A program made the translations under genes and the position numbers. 8,042 nucleotides of DNA from a virus (Duplodnaviria; Heunggongvirae; Uroviricota; Caudoviricetes): the IMG/VR virus record IMGVR_UViG_2574180019_000005, one strand, 5' to 3'. Of this stretch, positions 178 through 8,042 are shown piece after piece (position 1 is the first letter of the stretch; each line of letters begins with the position of its first letter). Below the pieces are notes generated by a model that had not been told where the DNA came from, did not search any database, and was given only the letters and a program-made list of their open reading frames with translations.

Positions 178-249
178 TATGGCACCTGTGTTGTTCTGAG
201 GTGAGCATATCACCTCTGTTCAGGTGGCCAAATTCAGTAAACCACTTCA
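1..249 (-). mobile_element. IS3-family (IS911-like) insertion sequence, left-end fragment; IS body continues off the window to the left
   Basis: Bases 1..249 are the exact reverse complement of 7793..8041. The element end is TGAAGTGG (reverse strand, terminal base at 249), a TG-initiated IS3-family terminus, and it carries the start of an orfA reading frame. Confidence 0.8.
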
Positions 250-283
250 ATTCACCCCTACAGAGAGCAAAAGAGAAACGCCG

Positions 284-865
284 ATGAACAACTCATGGTG
301 GCAGGAACTAATGCATTTTTTCCTGCAAGGAATGACACTTAAACAGTTGATTCATATGCTAATCATCCTGATCATATTGATTATTGTTATGCCGGTAAGC
401 GTAAAAGAATGGATAAACCTGCATAGTCCAGAAATCCTTCCTCATTACTGGATGTATTACATCCTGTTGTTTTGCGTTAGCTATGTGCTTAACGGCGTTG
501 TTAATTCCGCTTATCACGCTGTGACTGAAAGAATTGAGGTATTCGCTGCTCAGAAGCGCAAATCTAAAGAAGAAAAATATGTGCAAGATTTGTTTGATTC
601 GTTAACTCTTGGAGAAAGAGCGTATTTGGCATTCGCTGTAGCCGCTAATAACCAGCTACAAACGGAAAAGGGCGCTCATGAATCAATTTCATTGCTCAAA
701 AAAGGACTCCTCGTTCGAAGGCCTCCTGCTGTTGGATATCCTGATACCGACCGTTTCGTTATCCCTGAAAGCTATAGACATGAGTGCTACATTAGGTTTG
801 CCGGGAAGGCAGACAGCCTTATGGATGAACTTATCGCTCAGGATAAGCATGGCAAAAACAAGTAA
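284..865 (+). CDS. sieB: Superinfection exclusion protein B-like membrane protein
   Basis: The ORF-track start at 224 lies inside the IS end; the first ATG in phage DNA is 284, giving 193 aa. Two strongly hydrophobic segments (LIHMLIILIILIIVMPV; YWMYYILLFCVSYVLNGVV). It is convergent with N, the position and size of sieB in lambda and P22. Confidence 0.6.
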   Translation: MNNSWWQELMHFFLQGMTLKQLIHMLIILIILIIVMPVSVKEWINLHSPEILPHYWMYYILLFCVSYVLNGVVNSAYHAVTERIEVFAAQKRKSKEEKYVQDLFDSLTLGERAYLAFAVAANNQLQTEKGAHESISLLKKGLLVRRPPAVGYPDTDRFVIPESYRHECYIRFAGKADSLMDELIAQDKHGKNK

Positions 866-881
866 TTAGCAAATGAATTTA

Positions 882-1154
882 TCATCTCGCCGTCAGTTGT
901 TTTGATTTCCGGTAGCCTGCCGCGTAAAGAGCTACGTTCGGAAGACAAGTTGAACCTTCATATTTTCTGGTCAACGTTGTCAGAGTTATCACTTCTGCTC
1001 TCATTGCTGGTTTGAGCTTGCATTGCAAGACCACTCGTGAAGGGGTTGGCCTGTGTAGCTTGTCGGAGCTGATCGCCTCCTGACTTTGCAGATTTGCGCG
1101 ACGAGCTCTACGGCGAGAAGCTGCGGTGCCTTTAAATTCTGTTTTTCTGGACAT
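882..1154 (-). CDS. N: N-family transcription antitermination protein (P22 gene 24-like)
   Basis: Internal ATG at 1154 with GGAGG 5 nt upstream on the reverse strand. N-terminal arginine-rich motif GTAASRRRARRA; C-terminus LPNVALYAAGYRKSKQLTAR resembles the P22 gp24 C-terminus as recalled. Lies between sieB and nutL/pL as in lambdoid phages. Confidence 0.75.
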   Translation of the reverse strand: MSRKTEFKGTAASRRRARRANLQSQEAISSDKLHRPTPSRVVLQCKLKPAMRAEVITLTTLTRKYEGSTCLPNVALYAAGYRKSKQLTAR

Positions 1155-1265
1155 GGATTCCTCCCGAATAAACTTTGGCGATGCAATCTCGAAGCTCCTC
1201 CTGAGACGGTTGCTTCGGCATTGCATCCCACAGCTTATGTGGTTGGGTGATCTGGCTTTTCAGCC

Positions 1266-1297
1266 ACGTAGTCGAGAGTCGACGTTGTTTAAAGAGC
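1266..1297 (-). promoter_or_regulatory. Candidate nutL (boxA GCTCTTTAAACAA plus boxB-like hairpin GTCGA-CTC-TCGAC)
   Basis: Reverse strand reads GCTCTTTAAACAACGTCGACTCTCGACTACGT. BoxA matches the lambdoid consensus (CGCTCTTA-like). A perfect 5-bp-stem hairpin follows. It sits about 110 nt upstream of N, downstream of the putative pL. Confidence 0.45.
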
Positions 1298-1343
1298 CTG
1301 CCAGTCTGTTCCATTTGGCTTCCAGCGTCCTGCTGACGGTTAA

Positions 1344-1386
1344 ATAGTACGATATGTACTTTACAAGATCAATACAATTTGTTGTA
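1344..1386 (-). promoter_or_regulatory. Candidate pL promoter with overlapping OL operators
   Basis: On the reverse strand: -35 TTGATC (1367..1372), 17-bp spacer, -10 TACTAT (1344..1349). Perfect palindrome AGTACGATATGTACT (1346..1360) overlaps the spacer and -10. A second palindrome TACAA-TTTG-TTGTA lies at 1373..1386. The 11-mer AAAGTACATAT (promoter-relative) is shared with the pR region. Confidence 0.4.
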
Positions 1387-1558
1387 AGTTGGCGTGGTTT
1401 TTTATAACGCTTTGTATTTAATAGTGTTGTTTTTTAGCGTGGATGTATTGCCTCGGCGATGTAAGGAGAGATCAGAATTGCGTGGTTTAGTGGGTTGCAT
1501 CTATTTATTTTTCAATAAATATAATTGGTTATGTGTTTTTAGGTGGGCGAACGTGAGG

Positions 1559-1587
1559 CAAAGAAAACCCGGCGCTGAGGCCGGGTT
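1559..1587 (-). terminator. Intrinsic terminator ending the leftward cI operon
   Basis: Directly after the stop of the 250-aa gene: 6-bp GC stem CCCGGC/GCCGGG (1568..1573 / 1580..1585) with a 6-nt loop, followed on the reverse strand by UUUUCUU (1561..1567). Confidence 0.6.
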
Positions 1588-1590
1588 GTA

Positions 1591-2343
1591 TTATGCTGCA
1601 AGTCTCTTAACCCAAGTCTCTCTTTTGGAGAATGGTAGAACTTGGCTTGATTCATGGAAGAGTAAGGAGAGTTGTTGCATTTGATCACCAATTGCTTCGC
1701 TGTCTATAACAACAAATCTGTTGTTATACTCCTCACTTGAAGCTTTAAGATCAATTAGTTTCCCAAGCAATGAGTAAGCACTATTCCAGCTTCCTCCGTG
1801 TTTCACGCTTGATGTAAAAACGTATTTAGGTATGTCGGTTTTTATTGTTACAGGGACGGTAATTTGATGTCCACTCAAGCCATATACGTTTTCACGAAGA
1901 GAAAGTGCGTCTCTAAGCTCTGTGTGATATAGATAATCAATAACCATACTTTCAAACTTTTCAGCTTGAACTGGCTGATACCAGTCTAACGACAAAGTTG
2001 ATGCGAGTATACCAGCTCTAATTATGTTCGATGTAATCGCACCGACATCCTTTTCTGTTGCCCAAGCAATGATTTCTCCTCGAGCATTGAGTTCTGCGCC
2101 TTCTTTAAGCAGTAATTGTCGTATCTCATCAAGTCGTTTTTTGGTAAGCGAGATCCCTCTTGCCTCCATATTCATTAAGGCATCGCATCTGTCACTAACT
2201 AAATACCTACCATTGACTTCACGGATAAAGGCACCGACATGCTCTCCATCATCACAGTAAGTGAATGGACTGATAATTCTCAAGGTCTTGCCTATTGGAT
2301 GGCATTCGAAACCTAGTTGTGAGATCACTGTTGAGCACATCAT
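1591..2343 (-). CDS. Hypothetical protein (250 aa), distal gene of the cassette at the rex position; candidate defence or exclusion component
   Basis: Long ORF on the same strand as cI. Its ATG (2341..2343) overlaps the stop of the upstream gene in an ATGA arrangement. Followed by a terminator. I recognise no motifs. Confidence 0.75.
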   Translation of the reverse strand: MMCSTVISQLGFECHPIGKTLRIISPFTYCDDGEHVGAFIREVNGRYLVSDRCDALMNMEARGISLTKKRLDEIRQLLLKEGAELNARGEIIAWATEKDVGAITSNIIRAGILASTLSLDWYQPVQAEKFESMVIDYLYHTELRDALSLRENVYGLSGHQITVPVTIKTDIPKYVFTSSVKHGGSWNSAYSLLGKLIDLKASSEEYNNRFVVIDSEAIGDQMQQLSLLFHESSQVLPFSKRETWVKRLAA

Positions 2344-2897
2344 ATTCCAAACCCCATTTGCCCCGACTCATCTTCAAGCGGTAAAGGTATTCTCCCAGAG
2401 TAAGTTATGTTCAGATGTTTACAGAAGTAATTCCAATACCCTACCAGGTCATCTGGGTTTATGTCATCTTCGATTGGAAACGCTATTCTATCACTATAGT
2501 ATCCAGCTTCTTCATAGTATACATGGTAGTGAGCACCGTAAATGATATCTTGGTACTTCGGATGATCGACCTTGTAACTATTCGTGTGTTTGTCAAAGTG
2601 ATAGGTATCTACCGCGAAAACCCTCTTGTTATGATAGAAAGCAATAATATTTATTTTAGGGTAAGAAATCGGGTCATCAGGTTCTGAATCCTGATCTGGT
2701 TTCCATTTCAGTTCAAACTTTAGCCCTTGTATAGGTATACAATCCTCATCCAAGGGGATGATATGGGCTTGTAGCCACATATCAGAGCGACTTGGTTTCT
2801 GTTTCCATTTAACGCCAGAAAAGTTAACTATTTTTTTACAATAAAGTACTTTATCAACTTCTACTTGGCTTGGCTGATAATCATCTATTTTTGCCAA
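2340..2897 (-). CDS. Hypothetical protein (185 aa), proximal gene of the cassette at the rex position; candidate defence or exclusion component
   Basis: ORF begins 40 bp downstream of the cI stop. The first in-frame start is TTG (2895..2897), just after an in-frame TAA; the next ATG is at codon 40. Protein is rich in Asp/Glu/Tyr/His (for example HFDKHTNSYKVDHPKYQDIIYGAHYHVYYEE). Very AT-rich DNA. Confidence 0.7.
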   Translation of the reverse strand: MAKIDDYQPSQVEVDKVLYCKKIVNFSGVKWKQKPSRSDMWLQAHIIPLDEDCIPIQGLKFELKWKPDQDSEPDDPISYPKINIIAFYHNKRVFAVDTYHFDKHTNSYKVDHPKYQDIIYGAHYHVYYEEAGYYSDRIAFPIEDDINPDDLVGYWNYFCKHLNITYSGRIPLPLEDESGQMGFGI

Positions 2898-2936
2898 TGT
2901 TTACCGCCCTGTAAATTGTAGATAAAAGTGGTTTCA

Positions 2937-3596
2937 TCACCCAAACGTCTCTTCAGGCCATTGGCTGGCGATAACTTTCCCCACAACGGAACAACTCTCA
3001 TTGCATGGGATCATTGGGTATTGTGGGTTTAGTGGCTGTAGAAACACCTGACCGCTATCCCTGATCAGTTTCTTGAAGGTAAATTCATCACCACCAAGTC
3101 TGGCTATGCAGAAATCGCCGGGCTCAACAGCTTGCTCAGGGTCAACCAGAATTAACATCCCGTCAGGAAAGCTGGGTTTGGAACCTGTTGGTGCGGTCAT
3201 TGAGTTACCTTCAACCTCAAGCCAGAATGCAGAGTCACTGGCTTTTTTGGTTGTGCTTACCAATCTCTCCGCATCGCCTTTGGTAAAGGTTCTGAGTTCT
3301 GGAGAGAACATCCCAGCCTGAACATGAGAAAAAACAGGGTACTCATATTGTTTTTTAACTGGGGCCGATGAGTATTCGCCAACAGGTGAAAATGTCCCGT
3401 CGTGGTTGAATGATATGTTATCAATACCAAGGTATTTAAACACCACACCAATATCACTAAGAGATGGATGACGAGATCCGCGCAACCAGTGTCCAATCCC
3501 ACCCTGCGTCATACCTAGCTCTTCGGCTAACTTCTCTTGAGTTATGCCGAGCTCTTTCATTCTGGATCTAGCCAGTTCATACCATTTCATTTTCAT
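2937..3596 (-). CDS. cI: Phage repressor cI (LexA/S24 family) with a lambda-type C-terminal domain and a non-lambda N-terminal HTH domain
   Basis: From [20 protein letters not shown] to the C-terminus QWPEETFG the protein matches lambda cI as recalled, including the Ala-Gly autocleavage site (VQAGMF) and the S24 domain. The N-terminal HTH ([23 protein letters not shown]) is different. Start is ambiguous (ATG at 3596 or 3590; the ORF track uses TTG at 3638). Confidence 0.9.
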
Positions 3597-3707
3597 GTCC
3601 TTATTATTACGCTCTGTACTGGAACCATCCATGCACAATGTGTATTTTTACTTGTATTCGCAAAGTACATATTGTATTTTTTTATTCGTGTTTACTATGG
3701 AGGGCAT
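3597..3707. promoter_or_regulatory. OR operator region with candidate pR (and divergent pRM)
   Basis: Candidate pR: -35 TTGTAT (3652..3657), 17-bp spacer, -10 TATTTT (3675..3680), GGAGG 4 nt before the cro ATG. AAAGTACATAT (3662..3672) ends 2 bp before the -10, the same spacing as in the pL candidate. TGTATT occurs three times (3641, 3653, 3673). Confidence 0.45.
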
Positions 3708-3923
3708 ATGAGCAACCTACGAAAATATCGAGAGTCACTGAATATCTCTCAAACAACACTTGCTAAGGCAGTTGGATGCACACAGGGAGCTATCGGACAT
3801 TGGGAATCTGGTCGTCGCTTCCCAGACCTTAAAACATGCCGTGCTCTTGTTGCGTGCCTAAACAAGTTAGGCGCAAAAGTCAGTCTTGATGACGTGTTCC
3901 CGCCGGAACACAAAGCCGCTTAA
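3708..3923 (+). CDS. cro: Cro-like HTH (XRE-family) repressor
   Basis: 71 aa, HTH TQTTLAKAVGCTQGAIGHWESG. Divergent from cI across the operator region with a GGAGG ribosome-binding site. The ORF-track start at 3537 would overlap cI and OR, so I take ATG 3708. Confidence 0.8.
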   Translation: MSNLRKYRESLNISQTTLAKAVGCTQGAIGHWESGRRFPDLKTCRALVACLNKLGAKVSLDDVFPPEHKAA

Positions 3924-3933
3924 TAAGCGGATC

Positions 3934-3966
3934 CGCTCTTTGTAACAACGGACATTCGTCCTACGT
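3934..3966 (+). promoter_or_regulatory. Candidate nutR (boxA CGCTCTTTGTAACAA plus boxB-like hairpin GGAC-ATTC-GTCC)
   Basis: Located just after the cro stop. BoxA and the flanks ACAACG ... CTACGT match the nutL candidate, while the hairpin stem sequence differs. Confidence 0.5.
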
Positions 3967-4064
3967 CGCTGAAAAGCGAGTTCCAAGATATCTGACCAAC
4001 TAAGGCCATATGCGTTTCCACGCATACCTTTCAACTAACTATTCACTATTGGAAATCTTAAGAA

Positions 4065-4361
4065 ATGGAAAGAACAAGTTACAGCAAACTATCACAGCGT
4101 GACGTTGATCGCGCAGAAACAGATTTACTTATCAATCTGTCAGCTATTACCCAGCGCGGTCTGGCAAAGATGATTGGCTGTCATGAATCGAAGATAAGCA
4201 GAACGGACTGGAGATTTATTGCTTCGGTCTTGTGTGCTTTCGGAATGGCATCAGACATCAGTCCGATTAGCAGGGCTTTTAAGTATGCGCTTGATGGACT
4301 CACCAATAAAAAACGCCCGGCGGCAACCGAGCGTTCTGAACAAATCCAGATGGAATTCTGA
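4065..4361 (+). CDS. cII: Transcriptional activator cII (hybrid: lambda-type C-terminus, divergent N-terminal and DNA-binding part)
   Basis: C-terminal LTNKKRPAATERSEQIQMEF matches lambda cII as recalled; the N-terminal two-thirds differ. Position between cro/nutR and O. Confidence 0.85.
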   Translation: MERTSYSKLSQRDVDRAETDLLINLSAITQRGLAKMIGCHESKISRTDWRFIASVLCAFGMASDISPISRAFKYALDGLTNKKRPAATERSEQIQMEF

Positions 4362-4382
4362 GGTCATTACTGGATCAATCCA
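4305..4382 (-). ncRNA. oop: OOP antisense RNA (with terminator to), overlapping the cII 3' end
   Basis: Plus-strand sequence AATAAAAAACGCCCGGCGGCAACCGAGCGTTCTGAACAAATCCAGATGGAATTCTGAGGTCATTACTGGATC is the reverse complement of lambda oop RNA as I recall it, with a few substitutions. The GC hairpin plus U-tract lies at the 3' end (about 4305..4330). Confidence 0.7.
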
Positions 4383-4393
4383 CAGGAGTCATT

Positions 4394-5293
4394 ATGACAA
4401 ATACAGCAAAAATACTCAACTTCTGCAGAGGTAACTTTGCCAAACAGGAGCGTAATGTGGCAGATCTCGATGATGGTTACGCCAGACTATCAAATATGCT
4501 GCTTGAGGCTTATTCAGGCGCAGATCTGACCAAGCGACAGTTTAAAGTGCTGCTTGCCATTCTGCGTAAAACCTATGGATGGAATAAACCAATGGACAGA
4601 ATCACCGATTCTCAACTTAGCGAGATTACAAAGTTACCCGTCAAACGGTGCAATGAAGCCAAGTTAGAACTCGTCAGAATGAATATTATCAAGCAGCAAG
4701 GCGGCATGTTTGGACCAAATAAAAACATCTCAGAATGGTGTATCCCTCAAAACGAGGGAAAATCCCCTAAAACGAGGGATAAAACATCCCTCAAATTGGG
4801 GGATTGCTATCCCTCAAAACAGGGGGACACAAAAGACACTATTACAAAAGAAAAAAGAAAAGATTATTCGTCAGAGAATTCTGGCGAATCCTCTGACCAG
4901 CCAGAAAACGACCTTTCTGTGGTGAAACCGGATGCTGCAATTCAGAGCGGCAGCAAGTGGGGGACAGCAGAAGACCTGACCGCCGCAGAATGGATGTTTG
5001 ACATGGTGAAGACCATCGCGCCATCAGCCAGAAAACCGAATTTTGCAGGGTGGGCTAACGATATCCGCCTGATGCGTGAACGTGACGGACGTAACCATCG
5101 CGACATGTGTGTACTGTTCCGCTGGGCATGCCAGGACAACTTCTGGTCCGGTAACGTGCTGAGCCCGGCCAAACTCCGCGACAAGTGGACCCAGCTCGAA
5201 ATCAACCGTAACAAGCAACAGGCAGGTGTGACAGCCTGCAAACCAAAACTCGACCTGACAAACACTGACTGGATTTACGGGGTGGATTTATGA
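4394..5293 (+). CDS. O: Replication initiation protein O (lambda type)
   Basis: 299 aa, MTNTAKILNF...DWIYGVDL, essentially lambda O as recalled. Contains the ori iterons. Stop overlaps the P start (ATGA). Confidence 0.95.
   Translation: MTNTAKILNFCRGNFAKQERNVADLDDGYARLSNMLLEAYSGADLTKRQFKVLLAILRKTYGWNKPMDRITDSQLSEITKLPVKRCNEAKLELVRMNIIKQQGGMFGPNKNISEWCIPQNEGKSPKTRDKTSLKLGDCYPSKQGDTKDTITKEKRKDYSSENSGESSDQPENDLSVVKPDAAIQSGSKWGTAEDLTAAEWMFDMVKTIAPSARKPNFAGWANDIRLMRERDGRNHRDMCVLFRWACQDNFWSGNVLSPAKLRDKWTQLEINRNKQQAGVTACKPKLDLTNTDWIYGVDL
4742..4870. repeat. ori-lambda: four O-binding iterons followed by an AT-rich unwinding region
   Basis: Iterons ATCCCTCAAAACGAGGGAA (4742), AATCCCCTAAAACGAGGGAT (4761), ATCCCTCAAATTGGGGGAT (4786), ATCCCTCAAAACAGGGGGA (4809), then the A-rich stretch AAAAGACACTATTACAAAAGAAAAAAGAAAAGATTATT. 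Confidence 0.9.
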
Positions 5294-5991
5294 AAAACAT
5301 CGCCGCACAGATGGTTAATTTTGACCGTGAGCAGATGCGTCGGATCGCCAACAACATGCCGGAACAGTACGACGAAAAGCCGCAGGTACAGCAGGTAGCG
5401 CAGATCATCAACGGTGTGTTCAGCCAGTTACTGGCAACTTTCCCGGCGAGTCTGGCTAACCGTGACCAGAACGAACTGAACGAAATCCGCCGCCAGTGGG
5501 TTCTGGCTTTCCGGGAAAACGGGATCACCACAATGGAACAGGTTAACGCAGGAATGCGCGTAGCCCGTCGGCAGAATCGACCATTTCTGCCATCACCCGG
5601 GCAGTTTGTTGCATGGTGCCGGGAAGAAGCATCCGTTATCGCCGGACTGCCAAACGTCAGCGAGCTGGTTGATATGGTTTACGAGTATTGCCGGAAGCGA
5701 GGCCTGTATCCGGATGCAGAGTCTTATCCGTGGAAATCGAACGCGCACTACTGGCTGGTTACCAACCTGTACCAGAACATGCGGGCCAATGCGCTGACTG
5801 ACGCGGAATTACGACGCAAGGCTGCCGATGAACTGACCTGTATGACAGCGCGAATTAACCGTGGTGAGACGATACCTGAACCAGTAAAACAACTTCCTGT
5901 CATGGGCGGCAGACCTCTAAATCGTGTTCAGGCGCTGGCGAAGATCGCAGAAATTAAAGCTAAGTTAGGACTGAAAGGAGCAAGTGTATGA
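5290..5991 (+). CDS. P: Replication protein P (DnaB helicase loader, lambda type)
   Basis: 233 aa, MKNIAAQMVNFDREQMRRIANNMPEQYDEKPQ..., matches lambda P as recalled. Translationally coupled to O and ren. Confidence 0.95.
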   Translation: MKNIAAQMVNFDREQMRRIANNMPEQYDEKPQVQQVAQIINGVFSQLLATFPASLANRDQNELNEIRRQWVLAFRENGITTMEQVNAGMRVARRQNRPFLPSPGQFVAWCREEASVIAGLPNVSELVDMVYEYCRKRGLYPDAESYPWKSNAHYWLVTNLYQNMRANALTDAELRRKAADELTCMTARINRGETIPEPVKQLPVMGGRPLNRVQALAKIAEIKAKLGLKGASV

Positions 5992-6278
5992 CGGGCAAAG
6001 AGGCAATTATTCATTACCTGGGGACGCATAATAGCTTCTGTGCGCCGGACGTTGCCGCGCTAACAGGCGCAACAGTAACCAGCATAAATCAGGCCGCGGC
6101 TAAAATGGCACGGGCAGGTCTTCTGGTTATCGAAGGTAAGGTCTGGCGAACGGTGTATTACCGGTTTGCTACCAAGGAAGAACGGGAAGGAAAGATGAGC
6201 ACGAACCTGATTTTTAAGGAGTGTCGCCAGAGTGCCACGATGAAACGGATATTGGCGGTATATGGAGTTAAAAGATGA
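5988..6278 (+). CDS. ren: Ren protein (lambda type)
   Basis: 96 aa, MTGKEAIIHYLGTHNSFCAPDVAALTGATVTSINQAAAKMARAG..., matches lambda Ren as recalled. Start overlaps the P stop. Confidence 0.85.
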   Translation: MTGKEAIIHYLGTHNSFCAPDVAALTGATVTSINQAAAKMARAGLLVIEGKVWRTVYYRFATKEEREGKMSTNLIFKECRQSATMKRILAVYGVKR

Positions 6279-6303
6279 CCATCTACATCACTGAGCTAAT
6301 AAC

Positions 6304-6335
6304 AGGCCTGCAGGTAATCGCAGGCCTTTTTATTT
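6304..6335 (+). terminator. Intrinsic terminator between ren and ninB (tR2-like)
   Basis: 8-bp stem AGGCCTGC/GCAGGCCT (6304..6311 / 6320..6327), 8-nt loop, followed by TTTTTATTT. Confidence 0.7.
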
Positions 6336-6351
6336 GGGGGAGAGGGAAGTC

Positions 6352-6792
6352 ATGAAAAAACTAACCTTTGAAATTCGATCTCCGGCACATCAGCAAAACG
6401 CTATTCACGCAGTACAGCAAATCCTTCCAGACCCAACCAAACCAATCGTAGTAACCATTCAGGAACGCAACCGCAGCTTAGACCAAAACAGGAAGCTATG
6501 GGCCTGCTTAGGTGACGTCTCTCGTCAGGTTGAATGGCATGGTCGCTGGCTGGATGCAGAAAGCTGGAAGTGTGTGTTTACCGCAGCATTAAAGCAGCAG
6601 GATGTTGTTCCTAACCTTGCCGGGAATGGCTTTGTGGTAATAGGCCAGTCAACCAGCAGGATGCGTGTAAGCGAATTTGCGGAGCTATTAGAGCTTATAC
6701 AGGCATTCGGTACAGAGCGTGGCGTTAAGTGGTCAGACGAAGCGCGACTGGCTCTCGAATGGAAAGCGCGATGGGGAGATCGGGCTGCATGA
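6352..6792 (+). CDS. ninB: NinB (Orf) recombination mediator protein
   Basis: 146 aa, MKKLTFEIRSPAHQQNAIHAVQQILPDPTKPIVVTIQERNRSLDQNRKLWACLGD..., matches lambda NinB as recalled. Ribosome-binding site GAGGGAAG upstream of ATG 6352. Confidence 0.9.
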   Translation: MKKLTFEIRSPAHQQNAIHAVQQILPDPTKPIVVTIQERNRSLDQNRKLWACLGDVSRQVEWHGRWLDAESWKCVFTAALKQQDVVPNLAGNGFVVIGQSTSRMRVSEFAELLELIQAFGTERGVKWSDEARLALEWKARWGDRAA

Positions 6793-7316
6793 CTATCAAA
6801 TCAAATACGCCAGCACACGACAAGGACTGCTGGCAAACGCCGCTTTGGCTTTTTGATGCACTGGATATTGAGTTTGGATTCTGGCTGGATTCGGCAGCGA
6901 GCGACAAAAATGCTCTGTGCGCTCACTGGCTAACTGAGGACGACGACGCGCTCAATTCTGAGTGGGTAAGCCACGGTGCAATCTGGAATAACCCACCGTA
7001 CAGCAATATCAGGCCGTGGGTGGAAAAAGCCGCTGAGCAGTGTATACAACAGCGACAGACGGTAGTGATGCTTGTGCCAGAGGATATGTCTGTCGGATGG
7101 TTCAGCAAGGCTCTGGAGAGTGTTGACGAAGTTCGTATTATCACTGATGGACGGATTAATTTTATCGAACCATCGACAGGGCTGGAGAAGAAGGGAAACA
7201 GCAAAGGCTCCATGCTGCTGATTTGGCGACCGTTCATCAGTCCTCGACGGATGTTTACTACCGTATCCAAAGCGGCATTGATGGCGATCGGGCAGGGCGT
7301 CAGGAGGGCTGCATGA
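6789..7316 (+). CDS. Phage-type DNA N6-adenine methyltransferase
   Basis: 175 aa. Catalytic motif IV NPPY (WNNPPYSN), typical of amino-methyltransferases. ATG overlaps the ninB stop and the stop overlaps the ninE start. Sits where lambdoid prophages carry the small phage Dam-type methylase. Confidence 0.8.
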
Positions 7317-7489
7317 GACGACAGCGACGAAGCATCACCGACATAATCTGCGAAAACTGCAAATACCTTCCAACGAAACGCTCCAGAAATAAACGCAAGC
7401 TAATCCCAAAAGAATCTGACGTAAAAACCTTCAATTACACAGCCCACCTGTGGGATATCCGGTGGCTAAGATATCGTGCGAGGAAATGA
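7313..7489 (+). CDS. ninE: NinE protein
   Basis: 58 aa, [58 protein letters not shown], near-identical to lambda NinE as recalled. Confidence 0.85.
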
Positions 7490-7491
7490 CA

Positions 7492-7896
7492 ATGGATTAT
7501 TCACAGTTAAGTGATTTTGAAATTAACAGAATGGTAGGAGACATAATTTTTAAAGGCCTTTGGGCAAGTAAACCGGAAACATCAGGGAATAACACCAACA
7601 AATGGTATTACGGAAATGCTGATACAACTTTTGAGCCATTAAATCATTTGCCTGACTACTGCAATGATCCGAGCGCTTCATGGCCGATTATTGAGAAATA
7701 CAGGATTTCTATCTTAGACCAGTTAACTGAATGGTGTGTGGATGCAAAAGGCGTAAGCCCAATATTTGATACCAGACCTCTCCGCGCCGCCATGAAGTGG
7801 TTTACTGAATTTGGCCACCTGAACAGAGGTGATATGCTCACCTCAGAACAACACAGGTGCCATAATGAAAAAAAGAAATTTCAGCGCAGAGTTTAA
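7492..7896 (+). pseudogene. nin-region ORF of unknown function, interrupted by IS insertion at 7792/7793 (native part 7492..7792, tail read from IS DNA)
   Basis: ATG 7492 with GAGGA 7 nt upstream. The reading frame continues across the IS terminus TGAAGTGG at 7793, so the last 34 codons are IS-derived. Confidence 0.5.
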
Positions 7897-8042
7897 ACGC
7901 GAATCCGCTCAACTGGTCGTTGACCAGAATTACACCGTGGCAGATGCAGCCAGCGCTATGGATGTCGGCCTTTCCACAATGACGCGATGGGTGAAACAAT
8001 TACGTGATGAGCGGCAGGGAAAAACACCAAAAGCCTCCCCTA
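7793..8042 (+). mobile_element. IS3-family (IS911-like) insertion sequence, left-end fragment; IS body continues off the window to the right
   Basis: Terminus TGAAGTGGTTTACTGAATTTGGCCACC... followed by the orfA start. 7793..8041 is the exact inverted copy of 1..249. Confidence 0.8.
7865..8042 (+). CDS. IS911-like OrfA (transposase N-terminal HTH protein), partial; runs off window
   Basis: ATG 7865. [59 protein letters not shown]. Confidence 0.8.

Follow-up and report, generated by a model that had tools for sequence, protein, structure and literature searches.

A two-gene, likely anti-phage cargo module in the variable slot between cI and pL of a lambdoid prophage

Why is the DNA between a phage repressor gene and the pL promoter so AT-rich, and does this tell how and when it arrived there? 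The question is raised by a virus record of the IMG/VR database (IMGVR_UViG_2574180019_000005; Duplodnaviria, Heunggongvirae, Uroviricota, Caudoviricetes), from which a stretch of 8,042 nucleotides, hereafter the window, was analyzed. A lambdoid prophage is the source of the window, which represents its immunity and early region; positions 247-7795 are 100% identical to the Escherichia phages ev017, ev207, PhiR57_1, and PhiR63_2. In a preliminary description, the interval 1591-2936 was said to show a sharp drop in G+C content (GC) relative to the flanking phage genes, and the drop was ascribed to the recent horizontal acquisition of a cassette of the moron or defence type. The interval consists of two open reading frames (ORFs), orfA and orfB, and a 39-bp spacer below the cI gene. 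As argued below, it is probably a two-gene cargo module, likely anti-phage, in the variable cI-pL/N slot of the prophage, at the position of rexA-rexB in phage lambda.

Is this interval a unit of exchange? Phage 2G7b is homologous to 247-1587 (99.0%) and to 2935-7795 (98.5%), and between these junctions it carries an unrelated 1476-bp segment with one 283-aa protein. Phage 2B8 is homologous to 882-1588 and to 2936-6792, and its cargo is an unrelated 990-bp segment encoding an NYN-domain protein. A comparison with related prophages carrying other cargo, which had been proposed as a check, therefore reveals unrelated DNA at exact junctions (1587/1588 and 2935/2936) between flanks that are 98-99% identical. 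The swapped cargo module is 1588-2935 (minus strand), that is, everything from a shared terminator to the stop codon of cI. The right junction is this stop codon (2937), the right anchor of the slot; cI itself occupies 2937-3632 on the minus strand and has HTH_3 and Peptidase_S24 domains in Pfam. On the left, the homology breaks at the outer foot of a hairpin that is rich in G+C and followed by a T run (1587-1566, minus strand); a terminator scan gives this element as an intrinsic terminator with an 8-bp stem. In the aligned junctions, the hairpin sits at this place in all three phages. Since the terminator is conserved with other cargo, it belongs to the backbone and is not part of the insert. 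In contrast, the spacer from the cI stop codon to the orfB start (2898-2936, minus strand) is not conserved in 2G7b or 2B8 and belongs to the cargo. Both orfB and orfA lie on the minus strand like cI, bounded on one side by the stop codon of cI and on the other by the terminator that precedes oL/pL. As far as the sequence can tell, the slot order is promoter, cI, cargo, shared terminator, and oL/pL, as it is for rexA-rexB in lambda. In phage lambda, the abortive infection genes rexA-rexB lie between cI and pL, and tIMM is the terminator at the equivalent position. The cI-N region has been described as a mosaic hotspot that hosts rexAB and bstA and probably relies on the promoter of the repressor gene for its expression (Owen et al. 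2021, PMC8585504). As a mosaic cargo slot, the region was thus already known, and the compositional finding re-discovers a known rule, namely that accessory genes rich in A+T gather there.

How many kinds of cargo does the slot hold? IMG/VR was scanned for the 24-nt 3′ end of cI, and the conserved left flank was then located in each hit. The 24-nt sequence is present in at least 120 viral contigs, and the 90 loci with both anchors hold 25 unrelated cargo clusters of 339-2085 bp. The commonest cargo is the present cassette (18 of the 90 loci). Other loci carry a BstA homologue (cluster C1, 2.5e-20), Ser/Thr kinases resembling PD-T4-6/mad6 (1e-37 to 7e-50), the candidate system PDC-M63 in two versions (7.5e-45), or an NYN protein. 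The 3′ end of cI is common to at least four repressor types, lambda cI included. Repressor types were compared for 84 of the loci L001-L132, those with the full 696-bp cI region. Each repressor type occurs with 5-12 cargo types, and the present cassette occurs with three repressor types. Between two repressor groups, 411 bp of cI 3′ sequence are 95.9% identical, which fits a route in which cargo would be exchanged by homologous recombination via the conserved 3′ half of cI and the terminator/pL region. The slot has borders that can be placed to the single base, namely the stop codon of cI and the shared terminator. Therefore, the 24-nt anchor harvests dozens of cargo types and allows cheap mining of candidate defence genes. 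The commonest cargo harvested in this way is an uncharacterised gene pair that is found in 241 of 5426 complete E. coli genomes and follows a repressor gene in eight genera.

Several side observations concern the slot itself. The cleavage-domain half of cI (2937-3350, the 3′ half) appears to be a common recombination anchor for immunity swaps and for cargo swaps. A small RNA, svsR, has been proposed in a B2 strain, whose lambdoid prophage NC-SV would encode it at the 3′ end of cI (2026, PMC12803456). A diverged allele of the orfB-orfA pair was found in cluster C2 (L023, L043, L051, L056, L058, and L063); it encodes proteins of 258 and 180 aa with 51% and 41% amino acid identity, and records of its OrfA-like protein (P0089) come from at least 1000 contigs. 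Since other E. coli phages have this allele at the slot in question, two old alleles of a single system are in circulation within one phage pool. Clusters C8, C10, C11, C16, and C18 (for example, L038, L078, L002, L026, and L048) are further candidate cargo. They include proteins of 332-348 aa and, in a segment with a GC of 34.7%, a protein of 285 aa; those scanned had no PADLOC match. Two other proteins of this group resemble a ParA-type ATPase and a ClpP/SppA-type protease when their sequences alone are read.

Does base composition mark the same unit? The two hand counts in the preliminary description, 16 G+C of 60 at 2821-2880 and 27 of 60 at 5281-5340, are exact, and 2821-2880 has the lowest count among all 60-base lines of the window. 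The GC of 1591-2936 is 39.5%, against 45.9% for the whole window and 47.1% for the remaining phage part (247-7795; chi-square p = 5e-7). Among all segments of 1346 bp, the interval is essentially the lowest (the minimum starts at 1589; rank 0.15%). The GC at synonymous third codon positions (GC3s) is 0.325 in the cassette, compared with 0.414 in sieB, N, cI, cro, and cII (p = 0.003), 0.505 in O, P, ren, ninB, and the methyltransferase gene (p = 1e-9), and 0.458 for the neighbouring genes together. Thus, both the sliding-window analysis and the codon analysis agree that the cassette differs in composition from its neighbours.

The drop is sharp at the cI junction only. At 2936, GC is 36% on the left and 49% on the right over 200-300 bp, while the pL junction at 1590 has no step (41% versus 39%), and the dip is missing at this left edge. 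The 250 bp to the left of the cassette, which comprise the terminator, a spacer, and oL/pL DNA, are equally AT-rich. An operator-like palindrome, AGTACGATATGTACT, lies in the oL/pL region at 1342-1362 (an inverted repeat of 21 nt, 86% complementary), with a copy at 3662-3682 in oR. The regulatory DNA around 1342-1362 is AT-rich, and the low-GC tract thus runs leftwards past the cassette. The sieB gene has a GC of 41.7%, not significantly different from the cassette (p = 0.37). A two-state segmentation divides the window into 310-4880 (42.7%) and the rest (50.5%), so that the largest compositional boundary lies inside gene O near 4880 and not at a cassette edge. The line chosen in gene P for comparison sits in the GC-rich part. 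Therefore, the contrast first drawn with P mostly measures this larger boundary, although the cassette is indeed AT-richer than the remaining phage DNA. Within 310-4880, the best low-GC sub-segment is 1340-2945 (39.3% versus 44.6%), and its scan statistic is marginal (reached in 14 of 200 block shuffles). The pre-specified interval is 4-5.5 points below its immediate neighbours (p = 0.03 for the left flank and p = 0.004 for the right flank). In short, the GC drop is real, modest, and one-sided.

The dip might then be ordinary local heterogeneity, due to the amino acid content and to regulatory DNA rich in A+T, and would involve no horizontal exchange. The absence of a step at the left edge, the equally AT-rich sieB gene, and the marginal scan statistic would agree with this, as would the share of FYMINK residues (30% in the cassette versus 26% elsewhere) and the GC at second codon positions of orfB (0.29). 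However, GC3s is also low, so that amino acid content alone does not explain the dip. Moreover, the junction mapping contradicts this explanation: exactly this interval is replaced by unrelated DNA between nearly identical flanks, and the slot holds 25 cargo types. I regard it as hardly credible. Horizontal exchange into a lambdoid backbone, as first suggested, is borne out by comparative and not by compositional evidence.

Does the low GC mean that the cassette came recently from an AT-rich donor that does not belong to the enterobacterial phage pool? The deficit of 7.5 points relative to the remaining phage DNA and the low GC3s are in line with such an event. So is the sequence identity. The cassette is at least 99% identical in all 241 E. 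coli genomes holding it, among them the probiotic Nissle 1917, the reference strain ATCC 25922, UM146, NU14, APEC O18, and others. It is also at least 99.3% identical among the 18 viral contigs despite their different repressor types, while the nearest relatives outside E. coli are only 84% (OrfA) and 71% (OrfB) identical. The wider distribution of the pair tells against it. In Enterobacterales, Aeromonas, and Thorsellia, homologues of OrfA and of OrfB are found together, and a profile search with the OrfA family found no relatives beyond these groups. Loci in seven other genera were examined, namely Salmonella, Aeromonas, Klebsiella, Thorsellia, Erwinia, Photorhabdus, and Pectobacterium. At every one of them, the pair lies directly downstream of a prophage repressor gene on the same strand, with a 4-bp overlap, which makes eight genera with E. 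coli. This repressor-orfB-orfA synteny holds though the repressors differ in kind. The GC of the orthologous cassettes ranges from 32.6% (Thorsellia) to 51.0% (Aeromonas). It varies with the GC of the prophage DNA that flanks each cassette (r = 0.96, slope 0.72) and in every case is 3-9 points below it. Thus, the AT offset appears to be a lasting trait and not the signature of a fresh donor. Synonymous substitutions between the E. coli copy and the other genera, Salmonella included, are saturated, and nonsynonymous divergence (dN) is 0.09-0.47; the family is therefore old in these hosts and under purifying selection. Unrelated cargo behaves in the same way, as 24 of the 25 slot cargo clusters (GC 0.35-0.46, mean 0.41) are AT-richer than the adjacent cI (about 0.46). 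Neither is there a donor lineage of about 39% genomic GC with a cassette more than 95% identical. A recent AT-rich import is thus quite unlikely.

AT-richness would instead be a lasting property of the pair and of nearly all cargo of the slot, drifting toward the host composition yet staying offset from it. What remains of the proposed recent acquisition is a spread of the cassette within E. coli that looks recent, judged from the near-identity of its copies; the step from low GC to recency does not hold. In general, low GC of such cargo should not be read as recent acquisition, since the GC follows the host with a constant deficit.

What do the two genes encode? The orfB gene (2340-2897, minus strand) has a TTG start codon with a purine-rich GGGCGG 8 nt upstream, and orfA (1591-2343, minus strand) overlaps with it by 4 bp (ATGA). 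OrfA (250 aa) meets the gathering cut-off of the Pfam family DUF1828 (PF08861; 33.5 bits versus 22), and 24 of 24 members of the OrfA family have a DUF1828 match. It also matches PDC-M24B in PADLOC over residues 2-249 (E = 4.7e-10). The AlphaFold model of OrfA (predicted local distance difference test score, pLDDT, 83.5) has two domains. The N-domain is DUF1828, with a predicted fold like that of YbjN and type III secretion chaperones, and its invariant set is D31, D32, G33, E34, H35, D51, D54, N58, E60, and R62. The modelled C-domain has the α/β core fold of restriction endonucleases, which would place it in the PD-(D/E)xK superfamily, and its invariant residues are H159, K173, D198, R209, D214, and Q224.

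OrfB (185 aa) is a small soluble β-rich protein, a distant relative of DUF6978 and of PDC-M24A in PADLOC. Its model has a pLDDT of 82, and a fold search of the Protein Data Bank (PDB) and BFVD with this model gave no meaningful match. The family is tiny. An exhaustive hidden Markov model search of 1.84 billion clustered proteins yielded 20 representatives, all single-domain, with no domain fusions. K22, W31, R92, D97, N106, G121, H123, H125, F158, and P173 are invariant, and H104 is nearly so. The HxHxxxE sequence of OrfB was considered as cupin motif 1 and rejected, since E129 is not conserved in distant relatives and cupins are absent from the fold matches. NCBIfam gave nothing for OrfA or OrfB, and PDB sequence searches with the family profiles gave noise only. 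Neither protein has a signal sequence or a transmembrane segment, and both are therefore predicted to be cytoplasmic (maximal 19-residue hydropathy of 1.19 and 0.45 for the two proteins, versus 3.03 for the SieB control).

What might the pair do? I lean toward a prophage-expressed anti-phage system of the candidate type PDC-M24. The reasons are that validated defence genes reside in the slot, whose content is probably expressed in lysogens, and that, in an independent context, distant relatives of the pair are embedded in defence loci. PDC-M24 was nominated from cassettes embedded in BREX, DISARM, type I restriction-modification (RM), or Hma loci (Payne et al. 2024, bioRxiv 10.1101/2024.01.29.577857). 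As for expression, a promoter-consensus scan of the region revealed no convincing promoter of the cassette itself: the best sites match 9 of 12 consensus positions, with 5 in the region versus 6.1 expected from shuffles. From a promoter-like match reaching into the spacer (2915-2887), transcription would start at or past the start codon. It is likely that orfB and orfA are transcribed together with cI from the lysogenic promoter, ending at the shared terminator; the pair would therefore be made in lysogens.

A different function should be considered in view of the same layout. Two small overlapping genes tied to a repressor in eight genera might be a toxin-antitoxin or addiction module, or a regulator of lysogeny or induction, which would benefit the prophage without excluding other phages. 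The nuclease-like fold modelled for OrfA could act as a toxin. However, no known family of toxins or antitoxins in Pfam, NCBIfam, or PADLOC is similar to either protein, the slot holds validated defence genes (BstA and the PD-T4-6-like kinase), and the distant relatives are embedded in BREX, DISARM, and RM loci. This explanation is unlikely, and it overlaps with the defence reading, since many toxin-antitoxin pairs also act as defence.

The strains that carry the pair raise another question. The cassette is present in Nissle 1917, ATCC 25922, UM146, NU14, APEC O18, and others, and it is common in B2 extraintestinal strains. Could it be a host-fitness or virulence factor, a lysogenic conversion gene pair unrelated to phages? 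There is a precedent, as virulence phenotypes had been connected with bstA before it was recognised as a defence gene (PMC8585504). Nevertheless, the strain distribution may merely follow one prophage lineage, both proteins are predicted to be cytoplasmic, and their domain content is like that of nucleic-acid enzymes. A fitness or virulence role is thus highly unlikely.

Several points weigh against the proposed anti-phage cargo module. As described above, the GC dip is modest relative to the immediate neighbours, it has no step at the pL junction, and the scan statistic is marginal. OrfB falls below the cut-off of DUF6978 (PF22398; 22 bits versus 29.6), and 11 of 19 OrfB relatives matched this family weakly at a lax threshold of E ≤ 5 (best E = 1.1e-4), with none of the E-values shown being strong. 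The match of OrfB to PDC-M24A is weak and partial (E = 4.8e-4), being confined to residues 104-163 and, on the side of PDC-M24A, to the C-terminal part. In the C-domain of OrfA, the canonical D...(D/E)xK residues are not evident. H159 (at the start of strand 2) and K173 (in strand 3) stand at the catalytic places, with no acidic residue two positions before K173, and the invariant D198 and D214 are nearby. The nuclease activity of OrfA is therefore uncertain. PDC-M24 itself is only a candidate, as its authors list 145 PDC systems as untested (10.1101/2024.01.29.577857). Co-transcription with cI is presumed from the gene layout. Finally, the searched literature contains no experiment on the OrfB-OrfA pair and no functional work on DUF1828, DUF6978, or PDC-M24, and neither DUF1828 nor DUF6978 is named in the supplements of Vassallo et al. 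2022.

If the pair is an anti-phage system, how might it act? A soluble OrfA might bind OrfB, or a product of the invading phage, via its chaperone-like DUF1828 domain. This binding could control the restriction-endonuclease-like C-domain, and OrfB, with its invariant Asp/His/Asn/His/His residues, might be the partner that senses or gates. This scheme, in which protein binding by DUF1828 gates an endonuclease-like effector, is speculative and is offered only tentatively.

A still bolder view is that OrfB and OrfA form a mechanistically new, prophage-specific immune system. An unseen OrfB fold and a chaperone-like domain fused to a non-canonical endonuclease would sense and stop superinfecting phages, the pair would have been kept beside the repressor across Enterobacterales and Aeromonas, and it would explain the residual lambdoid resistance conferred by prophage 3 of Nissle 1917. 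I consider this doubtful. The "phage repressor pr" gene of prophage 3 of Nissle 1917, when cloned, is reported to have reduced the plating of lambda and Stx phages about 200-fold (Bury et al. 2018, PMC5987069). This work was considered as a test of the cI/cassette locus and rejected, as its cloning and quantitative PCR primers map to cII (window positions 4019-4387). According to the same authors, an unidentified further factor must exist in prophage 3 (PMC5987069). Both sieB and the orfB-orfA pair are candidates for it.

The remaining genes of the window were assigned from Pfam and RefSeq annotation. The sieB gene lies at 311-865 on the plus strand, and the antiterminator gene N lies at 882-1226 on the minus strand. 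On the other side of cI, cro, cII (4065-4361), O (4394-5293), P, ren, ninB, a DNA methyltransferase gene, and ninX are all on the plus strand. An Rfam scan of the window found no RNA family. N is annotated as a 123-bp coding sequence in the RefSeq records of ev017, 2G7b, and 2B8. Since Pfam N_peptide aligns to residues 23-114 of a 114-aa ORF, N looks under-annotated in these records. In gene O, the N-terminal part has a GC of 42.2% and the C-terminal part 54.2%, with the boundary at about 4880-4900. This break would suit a mosaic joint at which the half of O that binds the origin meets the half that interacts with P. The ends of the window, in contrast, are not phage DNA. A perfect 249-bp inverted repeat (1-249 and 7793-8041) corresponds to the end of an insertion sequence (IS) of the IS3 family, annotated as ISEc52, together with the first part of its transposase gene. 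Of the two junctions, the left one, where the IS adjoins sieB, was found in 33 complete E. coli genomes including ATCC 25922, and the right one, where the IS lies inside ninX (7795/7796), was found in none of the 5426. Thus, the source strain either has an IS copy on each side of the 7.5-kb phage piece, the two being inverted relative to each other, or the end of the contig arose as an assembly artefact.

How does the pair compare with known systems? The closest in layout is rexA-rexB of lambda, which is AT-rich relative to the backbone. The likeness comprises the position, the strand of cI, the number of genes, the terminator before oL/pL, and the presumed expression from the repressor promoter in lysogens. 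However, OrfA and OrfB gave no match to Rex proteins in Pfam, NCBIfam, or PADLOC, and RexB is a multi-pass membrane protein, while OrfA combines predicted chaperone-like and endonuclease-like folds. As neither OrfA nor OrfB has a membrane segment, the pair does not work like RexAB. BstA is similar in lying directly downstream of a prophage repressor, in having its own slot terminator, and in its synteny across genera (PMC8585504), and in phages that share the 3′ end of cI with the window, a BstA homologue fills the present slot (cluster C1). In contrast, BstA is a single protein of other domain make-up, with an anti-BstA DNA element in its own gene; no such element was noticed in the present pair, although no search was aimed at it.

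PDC-M24 is likewise a two-gene cassette with adjacent genes in the same order, A then B, in which OrfA would correspond to PDC-M24B and OrfB to PDC-M24A; however, it was defined outside prophage repressor loci, and its similarity to OrfB-OrfA is distant. Among PD-(D/E)xK nucleases with sensor domains (for example, Can2/Card1 and type II restriction enzymes of the NgoMIV/Cfr10I group), OrfA stands apart, since its N-domain is predicted to be YbjN- and type III secretion chaperone-like and not CARF, and the canonical acidic catalytic residues are not evident. Finally, the module resembles a moron in the sense of Juhala and Hendrix: it is extra DNA of deviant composition placed between two genes of the backbone, and it is probably expressed in the prophage state and not needed for lytic growth. 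A moron is autonomous, with its own promoter and terminator, whereas here the promoter-like matches are no more than in shuffles and the backbone terminator is kept with every cargo type. Thus, the suggested kinship with morons does not hold in the classical sense, while that with defence cargo agrees with a slot rich in defence genes. The cassette is an uncharacterised instance of the well-known phenomenon of exchanged cargo, of a type typical for defence.

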